The notes beneath the pieces are model-generated. The model searched no databases. It worked only from the letters and a program-made list of their open reading frames with translations, and had not been told where the DNA came from. A stretch of DNA of 64,000 nt from Patescibacteria group bacterium (GTDB lineage: Bacteria; Patescibacteriota; Patescibacteriia; UBA9934; GWF2-40-263): NCBI GenBank assembly GCA_004297215.1, contig SCUM01000001.1:78282-142281 (forward strand). Direction: 5' to 3'. Shown piece after piece: positions 3,855 to 56,261 of this stretch (its first letter is position 1; every line of letters begins with the position of its first letter). The position numbers and the translations under genes are program-made.

Positions 3855-4308
3855 GCTCATCCTCGCCATCGCCATCCTGATCGTCATGCTCGTGTTCTTC
3901 GCGACCAGGGTTCGCGTCCCTGCCGCGTCCTCTGGCCTTGCCTCGATGACCTTGCCGGACGGGAGCCATGTCACGGCCGAGGTCATGGACACTCCCACGG
4001 CCCGCGCCCAGGGTTTGTCGGGACGCGACCGTCTCGAAGAGGGGAAGGGAATGCTGTTCCTTTTCGATACGAAGGCCGCTCACGGGTTCTGGATGAAGGG
4101 GATGAAGTTTTCGATCGACATCGTCTGGCTCGACGGCGACAAGGTGGTGACCGTGCTGCCGGACGTGCCATTCGACCGCATGCATCAGCTCGTCATCCGC
4201 ATGCCCACGGCCCCGGCGGACAAGGTCTTGGAGCTCCCGGCTGGGTATGCCAAGTCCCATGGCATCGTCGAAGGAGCCACGCTTGACATCCTGCTGCCGG
4301 CACGCTAA
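3847..4308 (+). CDS. DUF192-family protein (COG1430)
   Basis: N-terminal signal anchor (MIRLILAIAILIVMLVFFA), then GMLFLFDTKAAHGFWMKGMKFSIDIVWLDGDKVV, typical of DUF192. The ATG at 3847 overlaps the upstream stop by 8 nt. The annotated ORF starts earlier (3721) but that N-terminus is R/S/C-rich junk. Confidence 0.7.
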   Translation: MIRLILAIAILIVMLVFFATRVRVPAASSGLASMTLPDGSHVTAEVMDTPTARAQGLSGRDRLEEGKGMLFLFDTKAAHGFWMKGMKFSIDIVWLDGDKVVTVLPDVPFDRMHQLVIRMPTAPADKVLELPAGYAKSHGIVEGATLDILLPAR

Positions 4309-4323
4309 TCTTCGGGCAGAAAT

Positions 4324-4389
4324 CGCAGCCTCTAGCCTTCAGCCATTAGCCTTTAGCTAACGGCTAACGGCTAACAGCTAATGGCTGCG
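4324..4389. repeat. Imperfect hairpin built from tandem heptamers (TAGCCTT/CAGCCAT ... GCTAACG x3/GCTAATG) in the rplU 5' region
   Basis: cgcagcc...cagccattagc ... gctaatggctg...ggctgcg. The outer 7-bp and inner 11-bp arms are exact reverse complements. 7-nt periodicity. Confidence 0.6.
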
Positions 4390-4444
4390 ACATAAGAGAT
4401 CGCAGGCGATAAGCCCTTGGGAGCCGAAGCCGCGAGCGCAAGAT

Positions 4445-4756
4445 ATGATCGCTGTCGTAAAGACTGGCGGAAAGCAGTACGTGGTCCGGGAGGGGGAGGA
4501 ACTGGTCGCCGAATGGCTCGAGGAGAACCCGGTGGGTTCCACGCTCGAGCTCACGACCCTCCTCGTGTCCGACGAGGACGGAAAGAACGCGAAGGTGGGC
4601 AAGCCTATGGCCGGCAAGGTCACCGCCACGGTGCTCGAGCACGGTCGTGGCGAAAAGGTGCTTGTCGTGAAGTACAAGCCGAAGTCCCGCTATCGTCGCC
4701 ATGTGGGCCACCGCCAGCCGTTCACCAAGCTGAAAATTGAGAAGATTTCCGCGTAA
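4445..4756 (+). CDS. rplU: 50S ribosomal protein L21 (bL21)
   Basis: MIAVVKTGGKQYVVREGEEL is the canonical bL21 N-terminus. 103 aa. No rpmA follows. Confidence 0.9.
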   Translation: MIAVVKTGGKQYVVREGEELVAEWLEENPVGSTLELTTLLVSDEDGKNAKVGKPMAGKVTATVLEHGRGEKVLVVKYKPKSRYRRHVGHRQPFTKLKIEKISA

Positions 4757-4771
4757 GTCGCGACGCATACC

Positions 4772-4799
4772 AAACCCCGCCCTTGTGAGGCGGGGTTTG
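4772..4799 (+). terminator. Rho-independent terminator after rplU
   Basis: aaaccccgcc-cttgtga-ggcggggttt, a GC stem plus T-run, 16 nt after the TAA. Confidence 0.7.
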
Positions 4800-4847
4800 T
4801 CGGTCCCGGGCATGGTGGAGCCGACGGGATTCGAACTGGCACCTCAC

Positions 4848-4983
4848 TGTCATCCTGAACGGAGGCCCTCAGGCCGGAGTGAAGGACCCTGGTCTGGAGG
4901 CCGCCAGATATTTCATTTGGGAATGACCGTCTGGAGGTCGCTCGTCGTGGATCCTTCGTCAGCGGTCCAGACTCAGGATGACA
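4848..4983. repeat. About 136-nt MITE/REP-like element, copy A, with terminal inverted repeats TGTCATCCTGA...TCAGGATGACA
   Basis: About 80% identical to copy B at 49617-49751. Internally self-complementary (ctgaacggaggccctcagg... / ...ggatccttcgtcagcggtccagactcag). Lies between the rplU terminator and the convergent GIY-YIG gene. Confidence 0.7.
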
Positions 4984-4999
4984 ATGAAGGATGGGATTG

Positions 5000-5296
5000 T
5001 TAGTGCAGATTTCCGCTGACATCCGCCCAGATGGGATTCACCGAATCGATAAGGGCGATCTTCTTCCTGCGGACCCATCCCTTTATCTGCTTCTCCCTGG
5101 TGATCGCTTCGTAAGCGCCGGAGAACGCCTCGAAGTAGACGAGCTTCGTGACATTGTATTTTGCCGTAAACCCTTTCACGAACTTCTGATGATGTTCGTA
5201 TACACGACGAGCAAGATTGTTCGTGACACCGGTATAGAGCACGTGGTTGGTGACATTTGTCAGGATGTAGACGGCGTATTGTCTGTCGTGTGCCAT
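5000..5296 (-). CDS. GIY-YIG nuclease superfamily protein (YhbQ/UPF0213-like)
   Basis: MAHDRQYAVYILTNVTNHVLYTGVTNNLARRVYEHHQ...KYNVTKLVYFEAF...REKQIKGW is a GIY-YIG core. Start placed at the Met preceding the domain. The annotated ORF extends to 5407 with a TTG start, but that N-terminal extension overlaps a repeat fragment. Confidence 0.7.
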   Translation of the reverse strand: MAHDRQYAVYILTNVTNHVLYTGVTNNLARRVYEHHQKFVKGFTAKYNVTKLVYFEAFSGAYEAITREKQIKGWVRRKKIALIDSVNPIWADVSGNLH

Positions 5297-5514
5297 AGAT
5301 GATCCTTCGTCGGCTGAGGCCTCCTCAGGACGACATGAGTGTCGCCTCCACGGCCCCTGGAACGTTTCCGTTCCTGCCCGGGGAACATACAAAACGACCC
5401 CCATCAAAGATGGTAGGTCGTTTTGTTGACACCCAGATTTGGAGGTTACCCTCGCTGGTTATTCATAATCTATCAGAAGTTTTGGTTTTCGTCAACGGTC
5501 TCCCTGTGGAAAAG

Positions 5515-6435
5515 TCAGGCGACGAGCAGCGGCTTGTGGTTTTTCGACTTCATGAAGAAGTAGCCTACGACCGCGAAGGTCATCACCGGGGATACCCAGC
5601 TTGGCACGTGGACGCCGAAGGCGTCGAGGAGCATGACGACGGACAGGCCGAGGATGGAGTACATCGCGCCGTTCTTGAGGAACACGTATTTCTTGATCTT
5701 TTCCACGTTGCGGATGGTGAACTCGCGCACCACGTACGCGCCGATGCCGTTGCCGATCAGGATGAGCGGTACAGAGAGGGTGAAAGCGAAGGCTCCAAGC
5801 ACGCCGTCGATGGAGAAGGTCATGTCTATCACTTCCAGGTAGAGGATCTTCGACAGGTCGGAAAGGTGGGACTTGGTGAGCTGCGCCTCGGCCTGTTCCG
5901 CGTTCTGCTTGAAGCCGTGGGTGATGAAGAACGCCGTGGAACCGACGACCGCTCCGAAGGCCATCACCGGATTCTCCTTAAGCCCGAACCACACGATGAG
6001 GGTGAGGAGGATCGACACGACGGCGTAGAACCAGATTCCCTGGCGGGAGAAGAAGTGCTCACCGGGGAGCCCGAACGTCTTCTTTTCGAGGAACAGCCAG
6101 TGGAAGAACAGGAACAACAGGAACGTCCCGCCTCCGGCGAGCAGGATGGGGGCTGACAGTTCGATCGCCGCATGCACGCTCGGGTCGTTGGAGAAGGTGG
6201 CCGTGAGCGCGCCGACGGGGCCGAGCGACGGGGTCACGGCCCACACGATGAGCCACGGCAGCAGGCCGCGCACGGCGAACACCGCGAAGATGAGTCCCCA
6301 GAACAGGAACCATTTTCGGGCGCGTTGCCCCATGCCGTGCAGCACCTCGGCGTTGATGATGGCGTTGTCGATGGAGCTGACCGTCTCGAACAGCACGAGG
6401 CCGGCGATGGTGATGAGCGCGGGGACGAGTTCCAT
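5515..6435 (-). CDS. TerC-family integral membrane protein
   Basis: Multi-TM protein with the TerC signature SIDNAIINAEVL. 306 aa. Confidence 0.8.
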   Translation of the reverse strand: MELVPALITIAGLVLFETVSSIDNAIINAEVLHGMGQRARKWFLFWGLIFAVFAVRGLLPWLIVWAVTPSLGPVGALTATFSNDPSVHAAIELSAPILLAGGGTFLLFLFFHWLFLEKKTFGLPGEHFFSRQGIWFYAVVSILLTLIVWFGLKENPVMAFGAVVGSTAFFITHGFKQNAEQAEAQLTKSHLSDLSKILYLEVIDMTFSIDGVLGAFAFTLSVPLILIGNGIGAYVVREFTIRNVEKIKKYVFLKNGAMYSILGLSVVMLLDAFGVHVPSWVSPVMTFAVVGYFFMKSKNHKPLLVA

Positions 6436-6438
6436 AGG

Positions 6439-7041
6439 CTAGGCGTCACGGCGGCCTTTTAACGCGTCACCGAGCGTCACCTCGTCGGCGTATTCGAGGC
6501 TGGCGCCCATGGGCAGGCCGCGGGCGAGGCGCGTCACCCGGCGGCCGAGCGGGGAAAGTTTCTTGGCCAAGTATAGCATGGTGGTTTCCCCCTGGATGGT
6601 GGGGGAGAGCGCCAATATCACCTCGACGATGTCCGGATTCGCGGCGAGGCGCTGTTCCAGGTCCGCGATGCGCAGCACGTCGGGCGTGATCCCTTCGATG
6701 GGATTGAGCACCCCGCCGAGCACGAGGTAGAGCCCGCGGTAGGCGCCGGTGGATTCCATCGTGGCGATGTCGCGCGACTCCTCGACCACGCACAGGAGGC
6801 TTCGGTCGCGTCTGTTGTCCGTGCAGATCTCGCATCCCTCGGATTCGCCGTACGAGAAACAGGCGCCGCAGGTCTTCACGCGTTCGCCCAGGCGCACGAT
6901 CGCCCCGGCCATCATGGACAGGTCGCCCTTCGGAAGCTTCAGAAGATAGTACACGAACCGCAGGGCCGTCTTCGGCCCCACGCCGGGGAGGCGCGCGAAC
7001 GCCGCGACGGCGTTCGCGATGGGTTCGGGGAAGCGGCGCAT
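6439..7041 (-). CDS. recR: Recombination protein RecR
   Basis: HhH (LPGVGPKTALR), C4 zinc finger (CGACFSYGESEGCEIC), Toprim (VVEESRDIATME). 200 aa. Confidence 0.9.
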   Translation of the reverse strand: MRRFPEPIANAVAAFARLPGVGPKTALRFVYYLLKLPKGDLSMMAGAIVRLGERVKTCGACFSYGESEGCEICTDNRRDRSLLCVVEESRDIATMESTGAYRGLYLVLGGVLNPIEGITPDVLRIADLEQRLAANPDIVEVILALSPTIQGETTMLYLAKKLSPLGRRVTRLARGLPMGASLEYADEVTLGDALKGRRDA

Positions 7042-7042
7042 G

Positions 7043-7345
7043 TTACATCCCCAGCTGCTTCATCGCTTCTTGGAGCCCGCCCATGTCCTTCATCCTGCCG
7101 GCGAGCTGCTTCTGCAGCTTCTTCACGGCGTCGGCGAACGCCTCCTTGAGGAGCTCCACCAGTTTGGACTTGTCGGCCATGAGCTCGTCGGCGATCTCGA
7201 TGTCGAGGATGCGCTGGTTGCCGTTCAGCTTCACCTTCACCTTGCCCCAGCCGGCCTCGCCCTCGGCGACGACTTCCTCGAGGGCGTTCTGCATGATTTT
7301 CGCCTGGTCGCGGAGGTTCTTGACGGCCTTGATCTTGTTGAACAT
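7043..7345 (-). CDS. ybaB: Nucleoid-associated protein YbaB/EbfC
   Basis: MFNKIKAVKNLRDQAKIMQNALEE...VKVKLNGNQRILDIEI. 100 aa, immediately upstream of recR as in the conserved ybaB-recR pair. Confidence 0.9.
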   Translation of the reverse strand: MFNKIKAVKNLRDQAKIMQNALEEVVAEGEAGWGKVKVKLNGNQRILDIEIADELMADKSKLVELLKEAFADAVKKLQKQLAGRMKDMGGLQEAMKQLGM

Positions 7346-7350
7346 ATCGA

Positions 7351-7456
7351 AAGGGGGTAGTTGGTAGTGCGTAGTGCGTAGGGTTGAAGGGTAGCGTGGA
7401 AAATGTCTTTAGACAACAGTCGATGCTACCCCCTACCACCTACGTACTACCCCTTC
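7351..7456. repeat. Intergenic imperfect palindrome rich in GGTAG/CTACC motifs (ybaB-dnaB spacer)
   Basis: aagggggtagttggtagtgcgtagtgcgtagggttgaagggtag ... gctaccccctaccacctacgtactaccccttcag. The right arm is approximately the reverse complement of the left. It shares ctaccccctaccacctac with ligA (51393-51428). Confidence 0.6.
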
Positions 7457-8924
7457 AGATTCCTGAAGGATTCGGGTCCACGGGGGGCGGTCCTCCCGCG
7501 CCGTGGCTTTGGGCCGGGGGCGGGCCTGCGGCAGCCAACGCCTTGGCAGGTGCCGCGTTGAAATCCCCTCCGCGGCGGTCGAGGTTCTTGAAGCTGGTGC
7601 GCTGGATGTCGAAGAACAGGCGCACCATGCCGGTGGGGCCGTTGCGGTGCTTGGCGATGTGGATCTCGGCCAGGGTCTTCTCCTCCGGCGTGAGCTCGTC
7701 GATCTGGTAGTTGCGGTCCGCGCTCTTCCTATAGATGAACAGCACCACGTCGGCATCCTGCTCGATGGAGCCGGAGTCGCGCAGGTGGGAGAGGCGCGGG
7801 ATGGCGGGCTTCACCATCTCCACGGCGCGGGAGAGCTGGGCGAGCGCGAGCACCGGCACGTTGAGCTCGCGGGCGATCTGCTTCAGCCCGCGCGAGATTT
7901 CCGACACCTCCTGCACGCGGTTGTCGGAGTTGCTGTTCTTGTTGCGCCCCTCCATGAGCTGGAGGTAGTCGATGATGACGAGCCCCAGGCCGTGCTCGGC
8001 CTGCAGCCTCCGGCACTTGGTGCGCAGCTCCATGATGGTGAGCGAGGCCGAGTCGTCGATGTAGATGGGGGCCTCGGACAGGACGCCCAGCGCGTGTCCG
8101 ATGCGCGGGAAGTCGTCGTCGCGGTCGGAGAGCCGTCCCGTGCGCAGCTTCCACAGGTCGATGTTGGCTTCCGCGCAGATCATGCGGTCCACCAGCTGTT
8201 CCTTGGACATTTCCAAGGAGAACAGCGCCGTAGGGACCTTTCCCTTCACCGCCACGTTGCGGGCGATGTCGAGCGCGAGCGAGGTCTTGCCCACGCTCGG
8301 GCGCGCCGCGAGGATGATGAGGTCGCTGCGCTGGAGCCCGGCCGTGAGCTGGTCGAGGTCCGTGAGGCCGGTAGCCACGCCGCGCAGCTTCCCGCGCTCG
8401 CGGTGCAGCTCGTCGATGCGCTTGAACGCGTCCTCCAAGACGCTCCGGATCGCGATGAAGGTGTTCTTGAGGAACTTCTGGCTCACCCGGAACAGCGTGC
8501 GTTCCGCCTCGTCGAGGGTCGCTTCCACGTCCTCGCCCTCCTCGAACCCGAGCTTGGTGATGTTGCCCGCCGCCTCGATGAGCCGGCGCAGGGTGGATTT
8601 CTTCTGCACGATCTGCGCGTAGTTCACGATGTGCGCCGAGGTAGGCACGGTGTTCGACAGCTCCACCAGGTAGGTGCGGCCGCCCACGCGCTGCAGATGC
8701 CCTTTTTCCTCAAGACGGTTGCCGAGGGTGAGGATGTCGACCGGCTCGTGGCGTTCGTACAGCTCGCACACCGTGTCGAAGATGAGCCGATGGGAGTCCC
8801 GATAAAAATCCTCGGGCCGCACGATGTCGGCCACTTTCATCATGGCATCCTGGTCCACGAGCAGGCACCCGAGCAGGGATTGCTCGGCCTCGAGGTTTTG
8901 CGGCGGAAGGCGTTCGACGGCCAT
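7455..8924 (-). CDS. dnaB: Replicative DNA helicase DnaB
   Basis: MAVERLPPQNLEAEQSLLGCLL (DnaB N-domain), Walker A ARPSVGKTSLAL, RecA-like core. Unusual Pro/Gly-rich C-terminal tail (AAAGPPPAQSHGAGGPPPVDPNPSGI). Start chosen at the MAVER Met, not the upstream ORF-track start. Confidence 0.9.
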   Translation of the reverse strand: MAVERLPPQNLEAEQSLLGCLLVDQDAMMKVADIVRPEDFYRDSHRLIFDTVCELYERHEPVDILTLGNRLEEKGHLQRVGGRTYLVELSNTVPTSAHIVNYAQIVQKKSTLRRLIEAAGNITKLGFEEGEDVEATLDEAERTLFRVSQKFLKNTFIAIRSVLEDAFKRIDELHRERGKLRGVATGLTDLDQLTAGLQRSDLIILAARPSVGKTSLALDIARNVAVKGKVPTALFSLEMSKEQLVDRMICAEANIDLWKLRTGRLSDRDDDFPRIGHALGVLSEAPIYIDDSASLTIMELRTKCRRLQAEHGLGLVIIDYLQLMEGRNKNSNSDNRVQEVSEISRGLKQIARELNVPVLALAQLSRAVEMVKPAIPRLSHLRDSGSIEQDADVVLFIYRKSADRNYQIDELTPEEKTLAEIHIAKHRNGPTGMVRLFFDIQRTSFKNLDRRGGDFNAAPAKALAAAGPPPAQSHGAGGPPPVDPNPSGI

Positions 8925-9010
8925 ACGGTGGGAGCATGGTAGCGGAGGGGGAGAAGAGGGAGAAGGGGAGAAAGGGGATGAGGTGTGATAAACTTGGGGA
9001 AAGATCCAAC

Positions 9011-10165
9011 ATGCGGCATTGGAGGGCACATATCAACCTGCCGTTCTGGCGCGCGGTCGCGGGGATGGTCGGCGGGACCGTCGGGGTCGGCGTGTTCGGC
9101 CTGCCGTTCGCGTTCTCGCAAAGCGGGTTCGCGATCGGCCTCACGACCCTCGCGGTCGTCGCGGCGGCCGTGCTGGTGCTCAACCTCATGTACGGCGACC
9201 TGGTGCTGCAGACCGCCGGCCGCCACCGGTTCGGCGGATACGTGCGCGAGCATCTCGGGGACGGGTGGGGACATCTGGCCTCGATGACCATGGCCTTCGG
9301 CGTGATCGGGGCCATGTTGGCGTTCATGGTGGTGGGCGGACGGTTCCTTGAGGAGCTGCTGATGCCCCTCGTCGCGCTCCCGGAAGAGGCCTGCGCGTTC
9401 GCGCTCGCCGCGACGGTGGCGGCCGCGTCGTATCGCGGCACGCGCCTCGCCGCGCGCGTCGAAGGGGTCGTCGTCGGGGCGCTCTTGTTCCTGTTCGCGT
9501 TCCTCACGCTCGCCGTGCTCCCAGAGGGGCACGTGAGCAACCTCGCGGGCGCCAATCTCGCCAAGGCATTCGTGCCGTACGGGGTCGTGCTCTTCGCCCT
9601 GGCGGGCGGCGGCGTGATCCCGGACATGCGGGACGTGCTGGGCGCGCGCCGGGAACGCGAGCTCCCGCACGCGATCGGCCTCGGCCTCCTGCTCATCGTC
9701 GCGCTGTACGCGGCGTTTTCGGCCGCCGTCCTCGCCGCCACGGGGAGCGCGACCACCCCGGCGGCCCTGACGGGGCTCATCGCGCTGCTCGGCCCGTCGT
9801 TCGGGCTCGTCGTTTCGCTGCTCGGCTCCCTGGTGGTCGCCTCCATCTTCCTCACGCATGCCGTCATCCTCCAGAACCAGCTTCACGTGGACCACGGGGT
9901 GAAACGAACCCATGCCTGGCTCGCCGCGTCGCTCGCGGCCCCGGCGCTCTACCTGCTCGGCCTTCGCGATTTCATCGCCATCATCGGGTTCGTGGGGTCG
10001 GTATTCGGCGGCGTGTCCGGGTTGCTCATCATCGCCTCATACGAGGCGATGCGCACAAGCCGGTGGTGCCGCGAGCACGTGTGCCTTGACGTCCCGTTTG
10101 CCGTCTCCGCCCTCGTCGCCGTATCATTCATCATCGGCATCCTCGCCGAACTCCATTCCTTATGA
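9011..10165 (+). CDS. Amino-acid permease (HAAAP/SdaC-TyrP-like transporter family)
   Basis: About 11 TM segments. N-terminal INLPFWRAVAGMVGGTVGVGVFGLPFAF resembles hydroxy/aromatic amino-acid permeases. Divergent from dnaB. Confidence 0.6.
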   Translation: MRHWRAHINLPFWRAVAGMVGGTVGVGVFGLPFAFSQSGFAIGLTTLAVVAAAVLVLNLMYGDLVLQTAGRHRFGGYVREHLGDGWGHLASMTMAFGVIGAMLAFMVVGGRFLEELLMPLVALPEEACAFALAATVAAASYRGTRLAARVEGVVVGALLFLFAFLTLAVLPEGHVSNLAGANLAKAFVPYGVVLFALAGGGVIPDMRDVLGARRERELPHAIGLGLLLIVALYAAFSAAVLAATGSATTPAALTGLIALLGPSFGLVVSLLGSLVVASIFLTHAVILQNQLHVDHGVKRTHAWLAASLAAPALYLLGLRDFIAIIGFVGSVFGGVSGLLIIASYEAMRTSRWCREHVCLDVPFAVSALVAVSFIIGILAELHSL

Positions 10166-17800: not shown

Positions 17801-20791
17801 GGGGTGCCGTACACGGACTGGGTGAAGGACGACGCATTCGTCGCGAGCGTGCCCTTCACGACCGACGCGGAGGCAAAGGCGCACGTGTCTTTCGTGCCGG
17901 AGAAAGACGGCGAATACGTGGCCGTGGCCAAGGCGCGCGACCGCCGCGGCCGCGAGATCACCGCCTCGGTGTCGCGCTGGGTGGAGCGCGGGAGGGGCGC
18001 CTCGGTGCGCGTGTCCGACGACCACGTGATGAAGGTCATCCAGAACAAGGCGGATTACGCGGTGGGCGACACGGCCTCGCTCGTGGTGCAGCTGCCGTAC
18101 GAGAAGGTAAAGGCGCTCGTCACGATCGAACGCGACACCATCCGCAAGTCCTTCGTCGTGGACCTCGGTTCCGACAAGAAGACGATCGAGATTCCCATCG
18201 ACGACGCCATGACCCCGAACGTGTACGTCTCGGTGATCGCCGTGCAGGGCGGGGGCGAGACCGGGATCCCGGAGTTCCGCATCGGCTACGCCAACCTCCA
18301 GGTGGATACGGCGCGCAAGGCGCTCGACCTGTCCGTGAAGGCGGACAAGGCCGTGTACCGCCCGGGGAACACGGTCACGCTCGAGGTGGACGCGAAGCGC
18401 AGCGACGGCTCCCCCGCGAGCGCGGAGGTGTCGATCGCGGTCGTTGACGAGCGCGTCGTCTCGCTCTTGGGCTCGATCGACAAGGACATCCTCGGGAAAT
18501 TCTGGTTCCCCCGGTCGATCGGCGTCACCACGGCGCAGACCTTGACCCAGCTCACCAAGAAGATCTTCACGGACACGGAAGGGGGCGGAGGGAAGGGCGG
18601 CGAGGAATCGCCGGCCGTGCGCGGGAATTTCCTCGACACGGCGCTGTGGAAGGCCGACGTGGTGACGGACGGCAACGGGAAGGCCACGATCAGCTTCCCG
18701 CTCCCGGACAACCTTACGAGCTGGCAGGTGCTCGCGATCGGCGAGACCAAGGACACGGTGGTGGGCAGCGCGGAAACGAAGATCGTCACGCGCCGCGACC
18801 TCATGGTGGAACCGCTCCTGCCGCGCCTCGTGCGTACCGGCGACACGGTCACCTTCGGCGCGACCGTGTTCAACAACACCGATACGGCCTTGAATGCCGT
18901 CGTGGAGCTTGCCGCGGAAGGGGTCACGGTGGACGGGGCGCGTGTGCGCAACGTGTTCCTCCCGGCGAAATCGCGCCGCGCCCTTTCCTGGGCCGTGCAG
19001 GTGCCGATGACCTCCTCGGAGGCGAAGGTCCGCGTCACCGGGAAGGGCGGCGGATTCGAGGACGGGTTCGAGACCACGCTCCCGGTGCGCGGCTATGCCG
19101 TCGCCGAGACCGTGTCCGCCTCGAACCTGTTCGGCCGCGCCGCGACCGAGACGATCGAGCTCCCGGAGGGCATCCTGCCGGACGTCGGGCAGGTGAAGGC
19201 GAGCGTCACGAGCAACGTGGGCACCGGGCTCGTGAGCGCGATCGACTATCTCGTGAAGTACGGGTACGGATGCGCGGAGCAGACCGCGAGCGCGCTCCTG
19301 GGCAGCCTCACGTATGAGCAGCTGGTCGCGGCGAAGCTTGCCAAAGGCAACGACGCGTTGGGCCGGCTCGCGCACGACAAGGTGGACGGCGCGATCAAGA
19401 AGCTCGTCTCCACCCAGCGGCCCGACGGCGCCTGGGGGTTCTGGCCCGAGGCCTATCGCGCGTACCCGCATCTCACGGCGTACGTCTTCTGGGCCCTCAC
19501 GCAGGCGCAGCAGGCGGGATACGCCGTCTCCGACGAGGCGCTCGACCGCGCTGACCAATACCTGCGCAACTACCTCGCCTCGCCGGGAAACGAGAAGTCC
19601 GTCGGCCTGTCCATGAACGAACGCGCGCAGGTGCTGTTCATGCTCGCCGAGCGGGATTCCGGAAATCTTGGCGGGTATGCCGCGACCGTATACGAGGAAC
19701 GCAACAGCCTCACCGCGTTCGGCCGATCGTTCCTCGCCATGGCGCTCGTCGCGATCGACGGGCCCGGTTCCTCGCGCGCGAAGACGGTGCTCGACGACGT
19801 GAAATCCAAGGTCATCTACATCAATCCTTCCACCGCATACGTGTCGGAGGACACCGGGTACGACGACTACTTCATGGGCAGCGACGCGCGCACGACCAGC
19901 CTCTACCTGCAGGCGCTCCTGCGCATCAGCCCCAAGGACGACGACGTCGATCGCCTCATGCGCTACCTGGTGAGCAAGAAGGTCGACGGCTACTGGTATT
20001 CCACCCAGGGGACCGCCATGACCCTCTCGGGCCTGCTCGCGTACGTGAAGCGCCATCCGGTGGACACCGAGGCGCTCTCGGTGAAGGTCTACCTCGACGA
20101 CGCCCTCGCGGAAACGCTCGCGTTCGACCAAGGCGACCTCTCCGGCGAACGCTCGGTCGTTTTCCCGATCGCGGAGCTTCTGAAGGACGGGGCGACGCAC
20201 GACTTCACGTTCAAGAAGGATTCCGAGAAGCGATACTTCTACGACCTGTCCTCCACCATCTACCGTCAGATCGAGGATATCGAGCCGTTCGACAACGGGT
20301 TCACCGTGCTCGCGGGCGTGTACGCGGTGAAGGACACGAAGTATGCGAAGCCGCTTTCCGAGGCCAGGCAGGGCGACACCGTGCGCGTGCACATGAAGCT
20401 CTTGGTGCCCAAGGAGCATCGCAACGTCTCCCTCGAGTACCACCTTCCGGCCGGGCTCGAACCCATCGACTTCTCGCTCCTTACGAGCCCGCAGGACGTC
20501 TCCGGCGAGCAACGCCAGTGCGTGCCGGACTGGTCGGGGGAGACCTATTGCATGAGCGACTGGGAATACGGCTGGTGGTGGGAGAACGCCTGGAAGCACA
20601 TCGAGCAGCGCGACGACCGGGTGTTCCTGTTCTCCGAGGACCTCCAGCCGGGCATCTACGAATATGACTTCCTCGCGACGGCCGTGACCCCGGGCACGTT
20701 CCGCGTGCCGCCCGCCCGCGCCTACGAGTTCTACGACCCGCTCGCCAACGGGCACAACGAGGGCAAGTTGTTCCGCGTCACCGCCCCATGA
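14867..20791 (+). CDS. Bacterial alpha-2-macroglobulin family protein (thioester-containing, YfhM-like), 1974 aa
   Basis: Signal anchor, multiple MG-like beta-sandwich segments, a CxEQ thioester motif (KYGYGCAEQTASALL), and an alpha-helical TED region (DGAWGFWPE...). Consistent GC3 bias throughout. Confidence 0.85.
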   Translation: MERLTKAFRRARKPLAISLAALAVAGLAAFHISPAPSVRGSVPDARVEADKNAPWRFVFDQGMWHRSVERAFKVTPPVSGAFSWQGNVLTFDPAFALEKGATFKVDIDADARNWFGKKLAVPFTQSFFVNNDPEVSVVTPANGVTVRPAQTLTMLFDRPMRALTGDLAVPDLLTMTPAVQGTYHWLGTSGFEFVPATGWAPATTYEVTLPKGLTFMDGTSLLDAYVWHFSTPALSVGLASDSTSVHPKSAVALAFNYPVKAAVVRDAITIYEQSVPRAGEPVAEGAQTVVSKATFTFVNDKDRPEQVLITKAGGLRMGTRYTFVLPEHFTGGLGPNGLSATWSQTVTTDELGFRVLRACPESGGTKRTDRSVLFVVNNQADEETFKTGVNVVPELENVEIGTYGYDRGCKGEGGRSVSVYGRWKPSTTYTITLSRGLKDIYGQPLENPQTHTITTDPYPARADLTGYSAYGVLASHLPRVYQVRTINMKEPVKATLCALPLEGYVKQGGTDCQPIGEKTYETNGPLNGYKVIDVDLDEIAGSRVSTGMYRLDLTMPGATNFSYHNGKASRYLLVTDTALTVKRDKAGKVLVWATDMKTGLGIEGLDASIHNPEHVGDGAVEQIDNARTDADGLATLEVKRGERHNLAIRAQGNGHFGFVNQSWDDGISPWNFGLDTSYGNKLSRDIGYLYTDRRIYRPDQLVYFKGVVRKDVDAILGLPDEKEVEVTFHDPNGTQVGRQTLPVSKYGTFNGAFQLDPSMALGSYQFAAALKGESIYGRFDVREFRRPDFKVTITPPSGTPTAGDVINVPIHGEYYYGVALAGATVEYSLTRRALYYQPMRGEWYSFTETDDSYCYWYCRMGGDLETVKTGTATLDQNGDFVLSVPASLTDYKTSATYALTATVTDVNQRSVSANGEFDVHKGDFYVGIRSDYSDGWQSPTAAFDLVTLFPDGTPLAGATGTVELYKRSWTSVKKEGTDGVPYTDWVKDDAFVASVPFTTDAEAKAHVSFVPEKDGEYVAVAKARDRRGREITASVSRWVERGRGASVRVSDDHVMKVIQNKADYAVGDTASLVVQLPYEKVKALVTIERDTIRKSFVVDLGSDKKTIEIPIDDAMTPNVYVSVIAVQGGGETGIPEFRIGYANLQVDTARKALDLSVKADKAVYRPGNTVTLEVDAKRSDGSPASAEVSIAVVDERVVSLLGSIDKDILGKFWFPRSIGVTTAQTLTQLTKKIFTDTEGGGGKGGEESPAVRGNFLDTALWKADVVTDGNGKATISFPLPDNLTSWQVLAIGETKDTVVGSAETKIVTRRDLMVEPLLPRLVRTGDTVTFGATVFNNTDTALNAVVELAAEGVTVDGARVRNVFLPAKSRRALSWAVQVPMTSSEAKVRVTGKGGGFEDGFETTLPVRGYAVAETVSASNLFGRAATETIELPEGILPDVGQVKASVTSNVGTGLVSAIDYLVKYGYGCAEQTASALLGSLTYEQLVAAKLAKGNDALGRLAHDKVDGAIKKLVSTQRPDGAWGFWPEAYRAYPHLTAYVFWALTQAQQAGYAVSDEALDRADQYLRNYLASPGNEKSVGLSMNERAQVLFMLAERDSGNLGGYAATVYEERNSLTAFGRSFLAMALVAIDGPGSSRAKTVLDDVKSKVIYINPSTAYVSEDTGYDDYFMGSDARTTSLYLQALLRISPKDDDVDRLMRYLVSKKVDGYWYSTQGTAMTLSGLLAYVKRHPVDTEALSVKVYLDDALAETLAFDQGDLSGERSVVFPIAELLKDGATHDFTFKKDSEKRYFYDLSSTIYRQIEDIEPFDNGFTVLAGVYAVKDTKYAKPLSEARQGDTVRVHMKLLVPKEHRNVSLEYHLPAGLEPIDFSLLTSPQDVSGEQRQCVPDWSGETYCMSDWEYGWWWENAWKHIEQRDDRVFLFSEDLQPGIYEYDFLATAVTPGTFRVPPARAYEFYDPLANGHNEGKLFRVTAP

Positions 20792-23662: not shown

Positions 23663-24679
23663 ATGGACGACCTCACCCTCCAGCTCCAAGCCGTCTTCGG
23701 CGAAGCGCTCAAGGAGCATGAGCCGATGGCCAAGCACACGAATTTCCGCATCGGAGGGCCGGCGCGGTGGTTCGCGGCCGTGACGAGCGAGGGTGAGCTC
23801 ACGCGCGCGCTCGACCTGTGCGATGCGCGGGGGATTCCCTGGTTCGTGATGGGTGGTGGGTCGAATTCGCTGTTCGCGGACGAGGAGTTCCCGGGGCTGG
23901 TGATGCAGATGGCGATGCGCAAGACGGACATCGTCGGCACGCGCGTCACGGCCGAAGCGGGAGTCCTGATGGTCGGCCTTGCCAGGGCGACGGCGGACGC
24001 GGGCCTCGCCGGCCTCGAATGGGCCATTTCGCTCCCGGGAACCGTGGGAGGCGCCGTGCGCGGGAATGCCGGCTGCTTCGGCGGGGAGACCAAGGATCAC
24101 CTGGCGTCCGTCCGTCTCCTGCGCGGGAACAAGTTCATCGATGTTCCTGCCTCCGACTTGGACATGGGGTATCGTCACTCGGCCCTTAAGGGTTCCCATG
24201 ACATCGTCCTGTCCGCGACGTTCGAACTCACGCAGGGCGACGCCTCCGCGCTCAAGGCCGCGCAGGCGGACATCCTTGCCAAGCGGAAGGCGTCGCAGCC
24301 GCTGTATGCCGGCAGCGCCGGGTGCCTGTTCAAGAACGTGGAACTGAAGGCCGACGCGGACCTGCAACGAGCGTCGTCGCTTTCCGATATACCTGGTGCC
24401 AAAGAGATGCTGGCCAGCCGGCGGCTGTCCGCCGGCTGGCTCATCGACAAGGCCGGGATGAAAGGCACACGCGTGGGTGACGCGCAGGTTTCCGAGACGC
24501 ATGGCAATTTCATCGTGAACCTCGGCGCCGCGAGGGCGGCGGACGTCCGGGCGCTCGCGGCAAGAGTGAAGGAGGCCGTCCATGCCCGATTTGGCATCGA
24601 TCTGGAGGAGGAGGTACAGTGGGTTGGAGAGAAGGCGGACAAGGCCTCAGGCGGACAAGGCCTCAGGCGTTTTTCCTGA
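23663..24679 (+). CDS. murB: UDP-N-acetylenolpyruvoylglucosamine reductase
   Basis: FAD-binding [10 protein letters not shown]...[10 protein letters not shown] and the C-terminal MurB domain. Starts 3 nt after the murC stop. Its 3' end contains a 17-nt tandem duplication (ggcggacaaggcctcag x2). Confidence 0.9.
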
Positions 24680-24714
24680 AGCCTTCTCGCCTCAAGCCTT
24701 AACGCCTAACATGT

Positions 24715-25132: not shown

Positions 25133-27814
<2,682 letters not shown>

Positions 27815-34997: not shown

Positions 34998-35002
34998 CGT
35001 TC

Positions 35003-35039
35003 GGGTCACTAAGTGACCTCCCTGGTCACTTAGTGACCC
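35003..35039. promoter_or_regulatory. Operator-like double palindrome upstream of rdgB
   Basis: GGGTCACTAAGTGACC-tccct-GGTCACTTAGTGACCC. Two copies of a 13-bp self-complementary site GTCAC-TWA-GTGAC. Confidence 0.5.
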
Positions 35040-35060
35040 GGCGGCTATACTTCTCGCGAT

Positions 35061-35620: not shown

Positions 35621-35741
35621 GTCCAACACCCGGTGTTGGGCCACCGAGTTTCCTAAGAATTTAGGCACTTTAGAAAATCACCCTCACAAAAATCCTAGGA
35701 ATTTCAAGCAAATCTACTTTTCCAACACCGGGTGTTGGACT
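35621..35741. repeat. Inverted hairpin pair flanking an AT-rich ~80-nt core
   Basis: gtCCAACACCCGGTGTTGGgc ... AT-rich core with internal palindromes cctaagaatttagg / cctaggaatttc ... tCCAACACCGGGTGTTGGac. The two termini are reverse complements of one another. Confidence 0.6.
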
Positions 35742-39594: not shown

Positions 39595-39745
39595 GTGAAG
39601 GATCAAGGCCGGAAGGTTCTAAGGACCAAAGGAGACGTGAAAGAATTTATTGACGAAAAGACGAAGGTTTAAAACCTTCGTCTTTGAATTTCGGACTTTC
39701 ACGTTTCCTTTGGCCCTTTCAAACCCTTCATTCCTTGGTCCTTTC
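39595..39745. terminator. Long low-GC imperfect palindrome with a core rho-independent terminator after secF
   Basis: Core aaagacgaaggtt-ttaaaa-ccttcgtcttt (39657-39685). Outer arms ggaccaaaggagacgtgaaag / ctttcacgtttcctttggccc. Confidence 0.65.
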
Positions 39746-50689: not shown

Positions 50690-52918
<2,229 letters not shown>

Positions 52919-53257: not shown

Positions 53258-53261
53258 TATG

Positions 53262-53391
53262 CCCAGTACTACAACAAGGACATTTTTATCGGTTGACTCC
53301 GTTAGAATTCCTTCAGGTCGAGAGCATCTTTCATTCCAGACGATCGTCCAGGATGCCTTCCTGACGAAGACGTCCTTGTTGTAGTACTGGG
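53262..53391. repeat. Inverted-repeat element between gatC and gatA (20-nt perfect TIRs)
   Basis: cccagtactacaacaaggac ... gtccttgttgtagtactggg flank about 90 nt. The interior resembles the MITE family (ccagacgatcgtccaggatgccttcctgacgaag). Confidence 0.65.
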
Positions 53392-53392
53392 T

Positions 53393-54847
53393 ATGGACCT
53401 CACGTCAGTGACCATCCGGGAGGTCGGGAAGCGGCTCGCCGCGCGGGAGATCTCGAGCGAGGATTTGGTGCGCGCATGCCTCTCCCGCGTCGAAGCGGCG
53501 AATGGCAAGCTGAACGCGCTGCTCGACGTGGACGAGAACGGCGCATTTGCTGCCGCAAGGATCGCGGACAAGGCCCGCAAGTCCGGTGACGACCCAGGGG
53601 CGCTCGCCGGCATCCCGATCGCGATCAAGGACAACGTCTGCGTGACCGGCTGGACCGCCTCGGCCGGTTCGCGCATCCTTGAGCCGCATCGCGCCGCGTA
53701 CGACGCGACGGTCATCACGCGCCTTAGGGCCGCCGGAGCGGTGCTCATCGGTCGCGCGAACATGGACGAGTTCGCGATGGGTTCTTCTACCGAATCGTCG
53801 CACTATGGCCCGACGAAGAACCCGTGGGACGCGTCACGGGTCCCGGGCGGCTCGTCCGGCGGCTCCGCCGCGGCCGTCGCCTCCGGCATGGCGCTTGCCG
53901 CGCTGGGCTCCGACACGGGCGGCTCGGTGCGCCAGCCCGCGTCGCTGTGCGGCGTGACCGGCCTCAAGCCCACGTACGGGCGCGTGTCGCGCTACGGCCT
54001 CATCGCGCTCGCGTCGAGCCTGGACCAGATCGGGCCGCTCACGCGCAGCGTGGAGGACGCCGCGATCGTCATGCGGGCCATGGAAGGGGAGGACGACCTG
54101 GATTCGACGAGCGTCGGCCCGCTCGAGACGTATGTGCCCGAGCTCGACCAGCCTTCGGTCGCGGGGCTGCGCATCGGCATCCCCAAGGAGTATTTCCTTG
54201 AGGGGATGGACGAGCGCGTGAAGGCGTCGGTGATGGAGGCCGTGGCCGAGCTGAAGAGCCAAGGCGCGACGGTGCACGAAGTGTCGCTTCCTCATGCGGA
54301 ATATGCCCTCGCCACCTATTACCTCGTGATGCCGGCCGAAGCGAGCTCAAACCTCGCGCGGTTCGACGGCATCCGCTACGGCTACAGCGCGAGCGCCGAC
54401 AGCCTCAAGGAAACCTACGAGCGCAGCCGCGGCGAGGGATTCGGCGCCGAGGCGAAGCGCCGCATCATGCTGGGAACCTACGTGCTGTCAAAGGGCTATG
54501 CCGACGCGTACTACCGCCAGGCGCTCAAGGCACGCACGCTCATCCGCCGCGATTTCGACGAGGCGTTCAAGGAGGTGGACCTGATCGCGACACCCACGAG
54601 TCCCACCACGGCCTGGAAGTTGGGCGAGAAGTTCGCGGACCCGCTCACCATGTACCTCTCCGACATCTACACCGTCTCCGCCAACATCGCCGGGATCCCA
54701 GCGATGTCGCTCCCGTGCGGGTTCGCCGACGGGCTCCCGATCGGCTTGCAGCTCATGGCCCGCCCGTTCGACGAGGCCACGCTCTATCGCGCCGGCATCG
54801 CGTATCAAGGTGTAACTGATTGGCATCGCCGAACACCAAATCTGTAA
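53393..54847 (+). CDS. gatA: Glutamyl/aspartyl-tRNA amidotransferase subunit A
   Basis: Amidase signature GGSSGGSAAAVA...GSDTGGSVRQPA. 484 aa. Confidence 0.95.
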   Translation: MDLTSVTIREVGKRLAAREISSEDLVRACLSRVEAANGKLNALLDVDENGAFAAARIADKARKSGDDPGALAGIPIAIKDNVCVTGWTASAGSRILEPHRAAYDATVITRLRAAGAVLIGRANMDEFAMGSSTESSHYGPTKNPWDASRVPGGSSGGSAAAVASGMALAALGSDTGGSVRQPASLCGVTGLKPTYGRVSRYGLIALASSLDQIGPLTRSVEDAAIVMRAMEGEDDLDSTSVGPLETYVPELDQPSVAGLRIGIPKEYFLEGMDERVKASVMEAVAELKSQGATVHEVSLPHAEYALATYYLVMPAEASSNLARFDGIRYGYSASADSLKETYERSRGEGFGAEAKRRIMLGTYVLSKGYADAYYRQALKARTLIRRDFDEAFKEVDLIATPTSPTTAWKLGEKFADPLTMYLSDIYTVSANIAGIPAMSLPCGFADGLPIGLQLMARPFDEATLYRAGIAYQGVTDWHRRTPNL

Positions 54848-54850
54848 ATT

Positions 54851-54942
54851 TGTCTTTGCGAGGAGCGTGCCGTCCAGGCGACGAAGCAATCTCCCATCTC
54901 GCGTGAGGTTGCTTCGTCGGCTGAGGCCTCCTCGCAAAGACA
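54851..54942. repeat. Structured inverted-repeat element between gatA and lgt
   Basis: tgtctttgcgaggag ... ctcctcgcaaagaca are the outer arms. The inner arms are cgacgaagcaa / ttgcttcgtcg. Shares cttcgtcggctgaggcctcct with 5305-5326. Confidence 0.6.
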
Positions 54943-54957
54943 GAGTCAAAGAGATCT

Positions 54958-56174: not shown

Positions 56175-56261
56175 GGCGGAGAGGGAGGGATTCGAACCCT
56201 CGAACCCTTGCGGGTTGCACGCTTTCCAAGCGTGTGCACTAGACCGCTATGCGACCTCTCC
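56175..56261 (-). tRNA. tRNA-Ser (anticodon GGA), class II with long variable arm, CCA encoded
   Basis: Reverse complement reads GGAGAGG-TCGCATAGCGGTCTAGTGCA-CACGC-TTGGAAA-GCGTG-CAACCCGCAAGGGTTCGAG-GGTTCGAATCCCTC-CCTCTCC-G-CCA. Confidence 0.8.

Follow-up and report, generated by a model that had tools for sequence, protein, structure and literature searches.

Here we describe a family of tandem heptanucleotide repeats in a 64-kb stretch of DNA from a Patescibacteria bacterium related to Candidatus Uhrbacteria (hereafter the window; ∼65% GC). Arrays of the unit CTACCNC, or of its complement GNGGTAG, occur at three loci of the window: the spacer between dnaB and ybaB, where two opposed arrays form a long imperfect hairpin, and, in frame, variable loops of the essential genes ligA and dnaG. 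It is probable, at roughly two chances in three, that the repeat belongs to the bacterial class of heptameric long simple sequence repeats (SSRs), with arrays that form at the DNA level and are then filtered by selection.

The repeat unit in the window

The initial annotation had noticed that a short motif of the dnaB-ybaB spacer recurs in ligA and dnaG, and this recurrence is real. The 12-mer CTACCCCCTACC has exact copies at 7426, 51398, 51412 and 58394, and a copy with one mismatch at 51405, compared with 0.04 matches in dinucleotide-preserving shuffles (five or more matches in 0 of 100 shuffles). The 18-mer CTACCCCCTACCACCTAC is identical at 7426-7443 in the spacer and at 51398-51415 in ligA, for which the chance expectation is 0, and the 14-mer CCCTACCCCCTACC is found at 58392-58405 in dnaG. 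The repeat is, however, not a discrete 12-mer or 18-mer as had been supposed. The true unit is a tandem heptamer, CTACCNC with its complement GNGGTAG, which has a TAG/CTA core and forms arrays of variable length.

The period is evident from several measures. Tandem Repeats Finder (TRF) reports period 7 in ligA (51397-51429, CCTACCM, 4.7 copies), at two places in the spacer (7364-7381, GTAGTGC, 2.6 copies, 100%; 7426-7443, CTACCAC, 2.6 copies), and in dnaG, where two copies of CCCTACC are followed by a second array, CCCCCTC, of 3.1 copies at 58434-58455. The pattern (GTAGNNN)2GTAG, with at most one mismatch, has seven matches in the window against 0.03 expected, all of them within the spacer and ligA, and exact lag-7 runs number three compared with none in 30 Markov shuffles. 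Arrays of the CTACCNC family are present at further loci of relatives (L125 513-543, L129 13174-13204 and L001 2147-2177; L numbers denote individual loci).

The arrays in the ligA and dnaG loops

The identities of LigA (50915-52918) and DnaG (57748-59583) were confirmed by homologues, the relatives being Candidatus Uhrbacteria. The ligA array (Table 1) encodes 11 residues of a variable loop that precedes the EVRGEV motif, and its C-rich strand is the coding strand. This stretch had been taken for an extra decapeptide relative to canonical LigA, which overstates it: the loop is only four residues longer than in E. coli LigA (2OWO, PDB alignment) and, at 13 residues compared with 12-13 in the closest relatives, exceeds theirs by 0 to 1. 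Its length is hypervariable across Uhrbacteria. In the AlphaFold2 (AF2) model the loop is a coil with a predicted local distance difference test score (pLDDT) of 71, between blocks at 92.

For dnaG, the low-complexity insertion that had been proposed from the sequence holds, with the 14-mer at its start. The DnaG loop is 19 residues longer than that of the S. aureus primase (4E2K, PDB alignment) and about 15 longer than in most Uhrbacteria. Compared with the nearest relative, L001, the window has 10 additional codons, most of which are supplied by a 28-nt mini-palindrome. The AF2 model has a pLDDT of 51-60 in the loop and a mean of 87.8, and unrelated expansions are found at the equivalent site of DnaG in other lineages; the loop has truly expanded, at a site prone to insertions. 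The suggestion that the coding copies occupy tolerant regions is thus borne out for both proteins by the hypervariability of the loops and their pLDDT values.

In relatives at ∼78-81% protein identity, the ligA and dnaG loops are likewise occupied by heptamer arrays, with units that have drifted (Table 1), which argues that the arrays are old and turning over rather than the result of recent colonisation. Of the idea that a C/T-rich repeat had colonised both intergenic DNA and tolerant linkers, what stands is a DNA-level repeat common to a spacer and to in-frame permissive loops, while the recency does not; on whether copies spread or arise in place, the evidence points both ways.

Alignment with relatives shows that the similarity is at the nucleotide level, with a period of 7 nt and a unit read in all three codon phases. 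For the ligA loop, the window, L002, L003 and L130 give lag-7 identities of 0.57-0.72, compared with 0.19-0.22 for L131 and L129. The unit in L003 and L130 is CTGCCGS, compared with CTACCMC in the window, and this A-to-G change is common to three units that lie in three codon phases, producing unrelated residue changes (T to A, T to G and Y to C). The process therefore acts on the DNA and not on the protein. A second site in ligA, at about residue 107, carries CCAACTC or TGCCAAC arrays that add four residues in L129, L003 and L130, and none in the window or L131; the distribution of arrays at this site is phylogenetically incongruent with that at the first. In the more distant L132, dnaG contains a further array outside the loop, CCTACAA with 4.4 copies (the two dnaG arrays lie at 18297-18321 and 19090-19120).

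As a separate observation, the ligA of L132 (10001-12016), a more distant Uhrbacterium, has its loop enlarged by a small palindrome, CCCTCCTT GAAA AGGAGGGG.

The dnaB-ybaB spacer

By Pfam assignment, dnaB (7455-9029), ybaB (7043-7345) and, downstream, recR (6439-7041) follow one another on the minus strand. The 109-nt spacer between dnaB and ybaB is, as had been recognised in the initial annotation, an imperfect palindrome of GGTAG-type units, with arms of 28 nt each (7354-7381 and 7426-7453) that are 75% complementary. Read on the sense (minus) strand, the C-rich arm becomes a GGTAG array that begins 1 nt past the dnaB TGA (7455-7457) and places TAG in all three frames, and the G-rich arm becomes a C-rich CTAC array whose end is 8 nt upstream of the ybaB ATG (7345).

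Folding of the spacer (7340-7470) is predicted to yield −48.7 kcal/mol (z −5.2) for the sense strand and −61.9 kcal/mol (z −7.5) for the antisense strand. A second hairpin, of 68 nt, lies at 4323-4390 between the stop of a DUF192 gene (4308) and rplU, and folds (4305-4400) at −49.1 kcal/mol antisense compared with −35.9 kcal/mol sense. In both heptamer hairpins the antisense strand is thus ∼13 kcal/mol more stable, and both are located between co-directional genes (dnaB to ybaB; DUF192 to rplU).

Several conventional assignments were considered for these structures. A terminator scan of 4000-9200 returned no site at 7351-7456 or 4323-4390, and a T-run is lacking, the sense strand having CCCCCUUUCGAU at its end; an intrinsic terminator is rejected on these grounds. 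A search of the whole window against Rfam at the gathering threshold gave a tRNA-Ser (56177-56261) as its sole match, and no family fits the repeats. The canonical quadruplex expression (G3+N1-7 ×4) has four sites in the window, none of them at the arrays, where two-tetrad G-quadruplexes (G4s) alone are predicted (7429-7440, 51408-51423, 58397-58413 and 58434-58455). A G-quadruplex reading is rejected because the canonical four-tract G3+ motif is absent from the arrays of the window. No sequence resembling a Shine-Dalgarno (SD) motif is found ahead of ybaB or dnaB in the window, and the ybaB leaders of relatives also contain no SD motifs.

Period, placement and orientation in the clade

In the window together with 11 loci of the clade (∼155 kb in total), period 7 accounts for 38 TRF rows and is joint highest with period 9. 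Units containing TAG or CTA make up 18 of the 38 rows, compared with 2.1 expected. Placement was assessed in relatives for which genes had been called (90.6 kb, 92.4% coding), in which merging of period-7 and period-14 arrays left 26. Twelve of these lie in the 7.6% of the DNA that is intergenic, a density per kb ∼10 times that within genes. The remaining 14 are intragenic, and the C-rich strand is coding in 11 of the 13 that are informative. The orientation bias of CTAC-type intragenic arrays is explained by stop codons, since the complementary strand holds TAG and, with 7 equal to 1 modulo 3, three units cover every frame.

The position of an array relative to neighbouring genes also follows a rule. 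Just past stop codons, the G-rich or stop-containing (TAG/TAA) strand is the sense strand in all nine arrays, and just before start codons the sense strand is C-rich or of CTA type (examples of both are given in Table 1). Convergent array pairs like those of the window are also present in L128 and L130.

Two variants of these patterns were seen. The tgt gene of the 63_20 Uhrbacteria genome holds complementary arrays ∼330 nt apart inside the coding sequence (CDS) (L125, 16192-16222 and 16548-16579), a perfect CTCCCAA array of 4.6 copies and its complement, one of them with the G-rich strand coding. Telomere-like units, ATTAGGG or TTTAGGG with CCCTAAC on the other arm, occur directly past the gatC and ybaB stops (L003 5096-5125; L128 405-487).

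Turnover at orthologous spacers

Orthologous spacers differ widely in their repeat content (Table 1). At the 3' end of hpf, the single unit of the window, which contains the stop, corresponds in L125 to GTGTAGG GGGTAGT GCGTAGG GAGTAGG between stop and terminator, a difference that looks like expansion in place. A 26-mer, GTAGTTGGTAGTGCGTAGTGCGTAGG, at 7357-7382 of the window is identical at a non-orthologous site of L129 (63_20 genome), directly after the rpoD stop, which looks like copying or a strong shared bias in units. A 16-mer, CAACTCCCAAATACCA, of the L129 dnaG loop recurs in the leader of the L127 ybaB gene.

A related case concerns ybaB itself. The ybaB CDS is identical (303 of 303 nt) in L127 (100-560) and L128 (1-460), which come from different samples, and the similarity ends abruptly at the start and stop codons, the flanks being unrelated. 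Of the two, L128 is a coverage-1 contig that has repeat hairpins on either side of ybaB and no recR. The pair could reflect a cassette-like exchange with its borders at arrays, or else an assembly chimera.

Table 1. Repeat features of the window and corresponding sites in relatives
Feature	Position	Strand	Sequence or description
Spacer hairpin, G-rich arm	7351-7396	+	GGGGGTAG TTGGTAG TGCGTAG TGCGTAG GG...GGGTAGC
Spacer hairpin, loop and inner small stem	7397-7423		From the fold
Spacer hairpin, C-rich arm	7424-7456	+	GCTACCCC CTACCAC CTACGTA CTACCCC TT
ligA heptamer array	51397-51431	+	CTACCCC CTACCAC CTACCCC CTACCAA CTACGAT
dnaG heptamer array	58392-58405	+	CCCTACC ×2, start of expanded loop between GFTGR and PKYMNSPET
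dnaG-loop 28-nt mini-palindrome	58407-58434	+	GCCCACC GAAGCTTCAGCGAA GGTGGGC, 7-bp perfect stem, N14 between
Second dnaG-loop array	58434-58455	+	CCCCCTC ×3.1, perfect, encodes PLPPPPS
Second intergenic hairpin	4323-4390		Convergent arrays AGCCTTT ×4.4 and GCTAACG ×4.4, TAG/CTA core (TRF, fold)
dnaB leader, C/T-rich 8-9-nt tandem array	8947-8977	-	Sense: CCCCTTTCT CCCCTTCT CCCTCTTCT CCCCC
ligA loop, L002 (81% identity)			CTGCCGA CTACCCC CTACCGA CTACCCG CAACGAT
ligA loop, L003			CCGC CTGCCGG CTGCCGC CTGCCGG CTACCGT
ligA loop, L130			TCGC CTGCCGC CTGCCGC CTGCCGG CTACCGT
ligA loop, L131 and L129			Non-periodic, equal length, xxPKGxxLPKxL
dnaG loop, L001 (79% identity)			CCTACTC CCTACAC CCTACCC CCTACAC (CCTACNC ×4.4 by TRF)
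dnaG loop, L129			TACCAAC CCCCAAC TCCCAAA TACCACC (YMCCAAM array)
dnaG loop, L132 (more distant)			CTACAAC ×3.6, perfect
dnaB-ybaB spacer, 63_20 genome			12 nt
dnaB-ybaB spacer, L127			43 nt, a 14-mer ×2, no partner arm
dnaB-ybaB spacer, L128			At least 99 nt, with a 10-mer hairpin
dnaB-ybaB spacer, L124			Different palindrome
DUF192-rplU spacer			Window: 68-nt hairpin; L125 and L124: absent
rpoD 3' end			Window: nothing; L129: TAGTGCG TAGTTGG TAGTGCG TAGTGCG TAG between stop and terminator
hpf 3' end			Window: one unit GCGTAGG containing the stop; L125: four CCTACNC units
Nine post-stop arrays			Window dnaB and DUF192; L001 1477; L003 1686 and 5096; L125 513; L128 405; L129 13174; L130 2861
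Pre-start arrays, examples			Window ybaB and dnaB leaders; L003 4764; L125 20180; L127; L128

Distribution and comparison with known repeat families

Arrays of this design extend far beyond the clade. In a scan for CTACCNCCTACCNCCTAC with one genome per species, the matches listed include Acidobacteriota, Planctomycetota, many filamentous cyanobacteria and Bacteroidota, and further Firmicutes, Streptomyces, Gemmatimonadota, Chloroflexota and other lineages of the candidate phyla radiation (CPR); many of the listed matches have an upstream GGTAG partner arm. The exact 19-mer GGTAGTGCGTAGTGCGTAG is present in 103 metagenome stretches with GC contents of 0.39 to 0.71, and about 41 distinct stretches have a CTACGCA partner within 110 nt. 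When clade proteins were compared with these metagenome stretches by tblastn, seven loci were found, of which L157 alone, from the genome of L129, clearly belongs to the same clade. The occurrence of arrays in many phyla indicates an architecture that is general among bacteria and not clade-specific. Among 21 metagenome hairpins with co-directional flanking open reading frames (ORFs), a sample biased by the search pattern, no consistent strand rule was found, and the strand asymmetry of the folds was for this reason dropped as a clue to an RNA role.

To our knowledge, heptanucleotide repeat families have been recognised since 1990, and no origin or function has yet been demonstrated for them. 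The short tandemly repeated repetitive (STRR) sequences of cyanobacteria were reportedly described in that year by Mazel et al. (cited in PMC4692102). The STRR units of heterocystous cyanobacteria are CCCCAGT, TTGGTCA and CAACAGT. Like the STRRs, the arrays described here are tandem heptanucleotides in genome-specific families, but the unit here is CTACCNC, the host is a Patescibacteria relative of Uhrbacteria, and STRRs are described as non-coding. Membership of the STRR group is rejected, as both unit and organism differ. A literature search, which was not exhaustive, gave no paper linking heptamer repeats with Patescibacteria or CPR.

A closer parallel is provided by the GGGAATC family of Xanthomonas and the GGGGAYT family of Nostoc (Rehm et al. 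2015, PMC4692102), of which 89-93% of arrays are intergenic and 7-11% intragenic. Both families are dispersed over many loci; the present one has three in the 64-kb window. About 40% of the Xanthomonas and Nostoc arrays form convergent pairs, spacers between co-directional ORFs are preferred, close relatives vary, and no function is known; the G-rich strand is sense within 50 nt after a stop and is rare as coding strand (PMC4692102). The arrays described here share with both families the 7-nt tandem unit with a G-run on one strand, typically in 2-5 units, as well as the intergenic enrichment, the convergent stem-loop pairs and the location in spacers between co-directional ORFs. In both cases, too, the G-rich strand is sense just past a stop or antisense just before the next ORF and is rare on the coding strand, and the same spacer varies in length and sequence among close relatives. 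The differences are the unit, here GNGGTAG with a TAG core; the window arrays, which have no canonical G3+ four-tract motif; the share of intragenic arrays, here about half (14 of 26) compared with 7-11%; their presence in essential replication genes; and the Patescibacteria host. In the DNA covered here, the arrays show the defining features of the bacterial heptameric SSR class, except canonical G4 potential; the Patescibacteria case extends a known repeat class to another lineage, in which the intragenic share is unusually high.

The TAACTGA direct repeats of Beggiatoaceae, cyanobacteria and Bacteroidetes lie upstream of starts that lack an SD motif, and a three-frame-stop constraint has been described for them (MacGregor 2015, PMC4679880). 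They resemble the present repeat in that the stop-bearing orientation closes all three frames and is kept to gene ends, that the opposite orientation can be translated and occurs at the periphery of proteins, that arrays stand directly before SD-less starts, and that one favoured unit recurs over distant lineages with no evident mechanism. However, TAACTGA repeats have another unit and are mostly single direct arrays upstream of starts, for which no hairpin is predicted, whereas convergent pairs are frequent here and intragenic copies fall in conserved essential enzymes. According to the account of Mrazek 2007 given in PMC4679880, heptanucleotides are in excess among long SSRs in many bacteria, and polymerase slippage is the proposed generator.

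Rickettsia palindromic elements (RPEs) are discrete elements of ∼100-150 bp that form defined families and encode a conserved peptide (PMC10969869). Here too, palindromic repeats occupy intergenic DNA and also lie, in frame, in housekeeping genes that are unrelated to one another, where the protein fold can accommodate them, but the present case consists of 14-35-nt arrays of a 7-nt unit and not of a fixed element. Copies of 14, 33 and ∼105 nt differ in unit number and have no common ends or flanking duplications, so the repeat is neither a miniature inverted-repeat transposable element (MITE) nor an RPE. A phase-variable contingency locus, in which the gain or loss of units switches a dispensable and usually surface-related gene, was also rejected, because the hosts ligA and dnaG are intact in every relative examined and the copy number is low.

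Origin and maintenance of the arrays

In the reading that we favour, arrays would arise, expand, contract and homogenise on the DNA through replication slippage, and inverted pairs would in addition undergo template switching between their arms; slippage or template switching is thus the probable generator. Between genes, arrays would build up where they are harmless, with GGTAG in sense past a stop and CTACC in sense before the next start, and where both orientations come together in one spacer they would pair into a long imperfect hairpin. Such a hairpin would bring the dnaB stop codon and the start codon of ybaB together at the foot of a single stem, and the 109-nt spacer may then act like the 12-nt spacer of a relative. 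We infer that the hairpin is tolerated, or preserves coupling, because self-folding would join the dnaB stop to the ybaB start. Inside genes, selection would keep in-frame arrays in permissive loops with the stop-free C-rich strand coding, and this filter on frame, loop and strand would give rise to the peptides of Pro, Thr, Tyr and Leu in the LigA and DnaG loops.

Some observations weigh against this reading. Slippage alone gives no reason why a few unit sequences dominate and recur, and with 2-5 units its rates should be low. Within a single genome, the spacer and ligA share the whole 18-mer CTACCCCCTACCACCTAC, and the 26-mer GTAGTTGGTAGTGCGTAGTGCGTAGG recurs at a non-orthologous site of L129 for which the orthologous site of the window is empty. 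The ligA array has replaced a loop at unchanged length, unlike a simple expansion.

It is rather unlikely that the arrays are instead selected cis-acting signals, in the form of an mRNA-protecting or ybaB-gating hairpin, a three-frame TAG stop, a pyrimidine-rich SD-less leader, or a G-quadruplex/i-motif switch. A signal would agree with the strong positional rule (nine of nine post-stop arrays with the G-rich or stop-containing strand in sense, pre-start arrays of C-rich or CTA type), which is matched by an equal preference in the G4-forming heptamers of Xanthomonas and Nostoc (PMC4692102), and with the enrichment of TAG/CTA in the units (18 of 38 compared with 2.1); the intragenic orientation bias, however, is fully accounted for by stop codons. 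The hairpins fold far better than shuffles (z −3.8 to −7.5), and the outermost stem pairs of the spacer adjoin the dnaB stop and the ybaB start region, but in both window hairpins the antisense strand gives the more stable fold, the 21 metagenome hairpins give no consistent strand rule, and neither hairpin has a T-run or appears in the terminator scan. The absence of SD-like sequences ahead of ybaB and dnaB is consistent with a leader role, and a quadruplex switch is disfavoured by the lack of a canonical four-tract G3+ pattern in the window arrays, which offer two-tetrad folds at most. A selected role is further weakened because nothing is conserved at orthologous spacers (that between dnaB and ybaB is 12 nt in 63_20, 43 nt in L127 and another palindrome in L124).

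We consider it improbable that the repeat is a very small mobile element, or one propagated by gene conversion (a 'nano-MITE' with an effect like that of RPEs or of the small dispersed repeats of cyanobacteria), that enters spacers and in-frame loops and maybe passes between lineages. Such an element would account for the identity of CTACCCCCTACCACCTAC at two window loci, of the 26-mer in the window spacer and the 63_20 rpoD 3' spacer (empty in the window), and of the 16-mer in the L129 dnaG loop and the L127 ybaB leader, although the bias of the clade to few units makes identical short arrays fairly likely. Presence and absence also fit it: the 68-nt hairpin at 4323-4390 is missing from the equivalent spacer of L125 and L124, the ybaB leaders of L127 and L128 are wholly different despite a 100% identical ybaB CDS, and the arrays at the two ligA sites are phylogenetically incongruent. 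The ligA loop, however, is unchanged in length, which implies no net insertion, and one-unit 'seeds' at orthologous sites agree with expansion in place. The copies share neither a length nor a boundary, and apart from the arrays themselves they are not bordered by terminal inverted repeats or by a target-site duplication. Each locus has its own unit number and variants, and no candidate enzyme was seen beside any copy. Horizontal spread has been argued for the TAACTGA repeats (MacGregor, PMC4679880); here, the presence of the 19-mer GGTAGTGCGTAGTGCGTAG in 103 metagenome stretches with GC of 0.39-0.71, i.e. in unrelated organisms, speaks against movement of such an element.

A broader form of this idea, which we hold to be quite improbable, is that TAG-core arrays are not passive products of slippage but propagate actively, with gene conversion or a hypothetical enzyme copying them from locus to locus and maybe also from one lineage to another, and that they repeatedly overwrite permissive loops of essential CPR replication proteins. 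If true, active copying would be a source of protein-loop diversification, and the system would be a tractable model for the origin of the STRR, GGGAATC and TAACTGA families.

Protein-level selection for Pro/Thr-rich linkers, with the similarity to the spacer incidental, is highly improbable: peptides rich in P and T are common as linkers and the loops are surface-exposed or flexible, but the period is 7 nt and not 3 or 21, the array covers just ∼1.5 peptide periods, the A-to-G unit changes of L003 and L130 fall in three codon phases and give unrelated residues, Leu is encoded by CTA (a codon that should be rare at 65% GC), and 18 nt are identical to non-coding DNA with a chance expectation of 0, so that the phase-independent 7-nt periodicity effectively refutes it. 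A diversity-generating retroelement, or some other mutator specific for A, was considered on general grounds as a cause of the A-to-G unit changes, and nothing in the window points to one.

Other repeats in the window

The C/T-rich tandem array of the dnaB leader (8947-8977) precedes the ATG at 8924, the likely start of dnaB, by ∼22-52 nt. A long imperfect palindrome occupies 54841-54952, with the arms TTTGCGAGGAG..CAGGCGACGAAGCAATCTC and GAGGTTGCTTCGTCGGCTG..CTCCTCGCAAA. Its core recurs in L124, both upstream of ybaB (1-110) and at the other end of the 3.3-kb contig (3251-3263), which suggests a dispersed family in the clade, similar to repetitive extragenic palindromes (REPs) or MITEs, that breaks assemblies.

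Repeats of other periods were also observed. The 3' end of murB (24633-24707) is a perfect 16-nt tandem, AGGCGGACAAGGCCTC in 2.3 copies, which pairs with an array of 15-nt period just before hpf to give a hairpin of longer units that overlaps the coding end. At 27702-27741, an in-frame 9-nt repeat, CCTCAAGCT in 4.4 copies, encodes an S/P-rich linker directly before the SEC-C zinc motif of SecA. Further strong intergenic inverted repeats are found at 35002-35040, 35621-35740, 53259-53394 and 39621-39718. These four comprise a perfect 17-nt palindrome, CGGGTCACTAAGTGACC/GGTCACTTAGTGACCCG, directly past a terminator-like hairpin; one repeat whose two 19-nt arms show 100% complementarity and are separated by 82 nt; and two with arms of 28 nt and 23 nt and ∼90% complementarity.

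Implications

The case described here adds the ultra-small Patescibacteria, with 92% coding DNA, to the lineages that carry heptanucleotide repeat families. Genes, with the LigA and DnaG loops among the sites, hold about half of the arrays, and the orthologous loops show concerted drift. In practical terms, arrays of this kind lend essential proteins spurious 'insertions' and peptides of low complexity, and they probably break assemblies; annotators of CPR genomes should expect them. Together, the lineage, the high intragenic share and the concerted drift form a clean natural experiment in which slippage, conversion and selection can be told apart.

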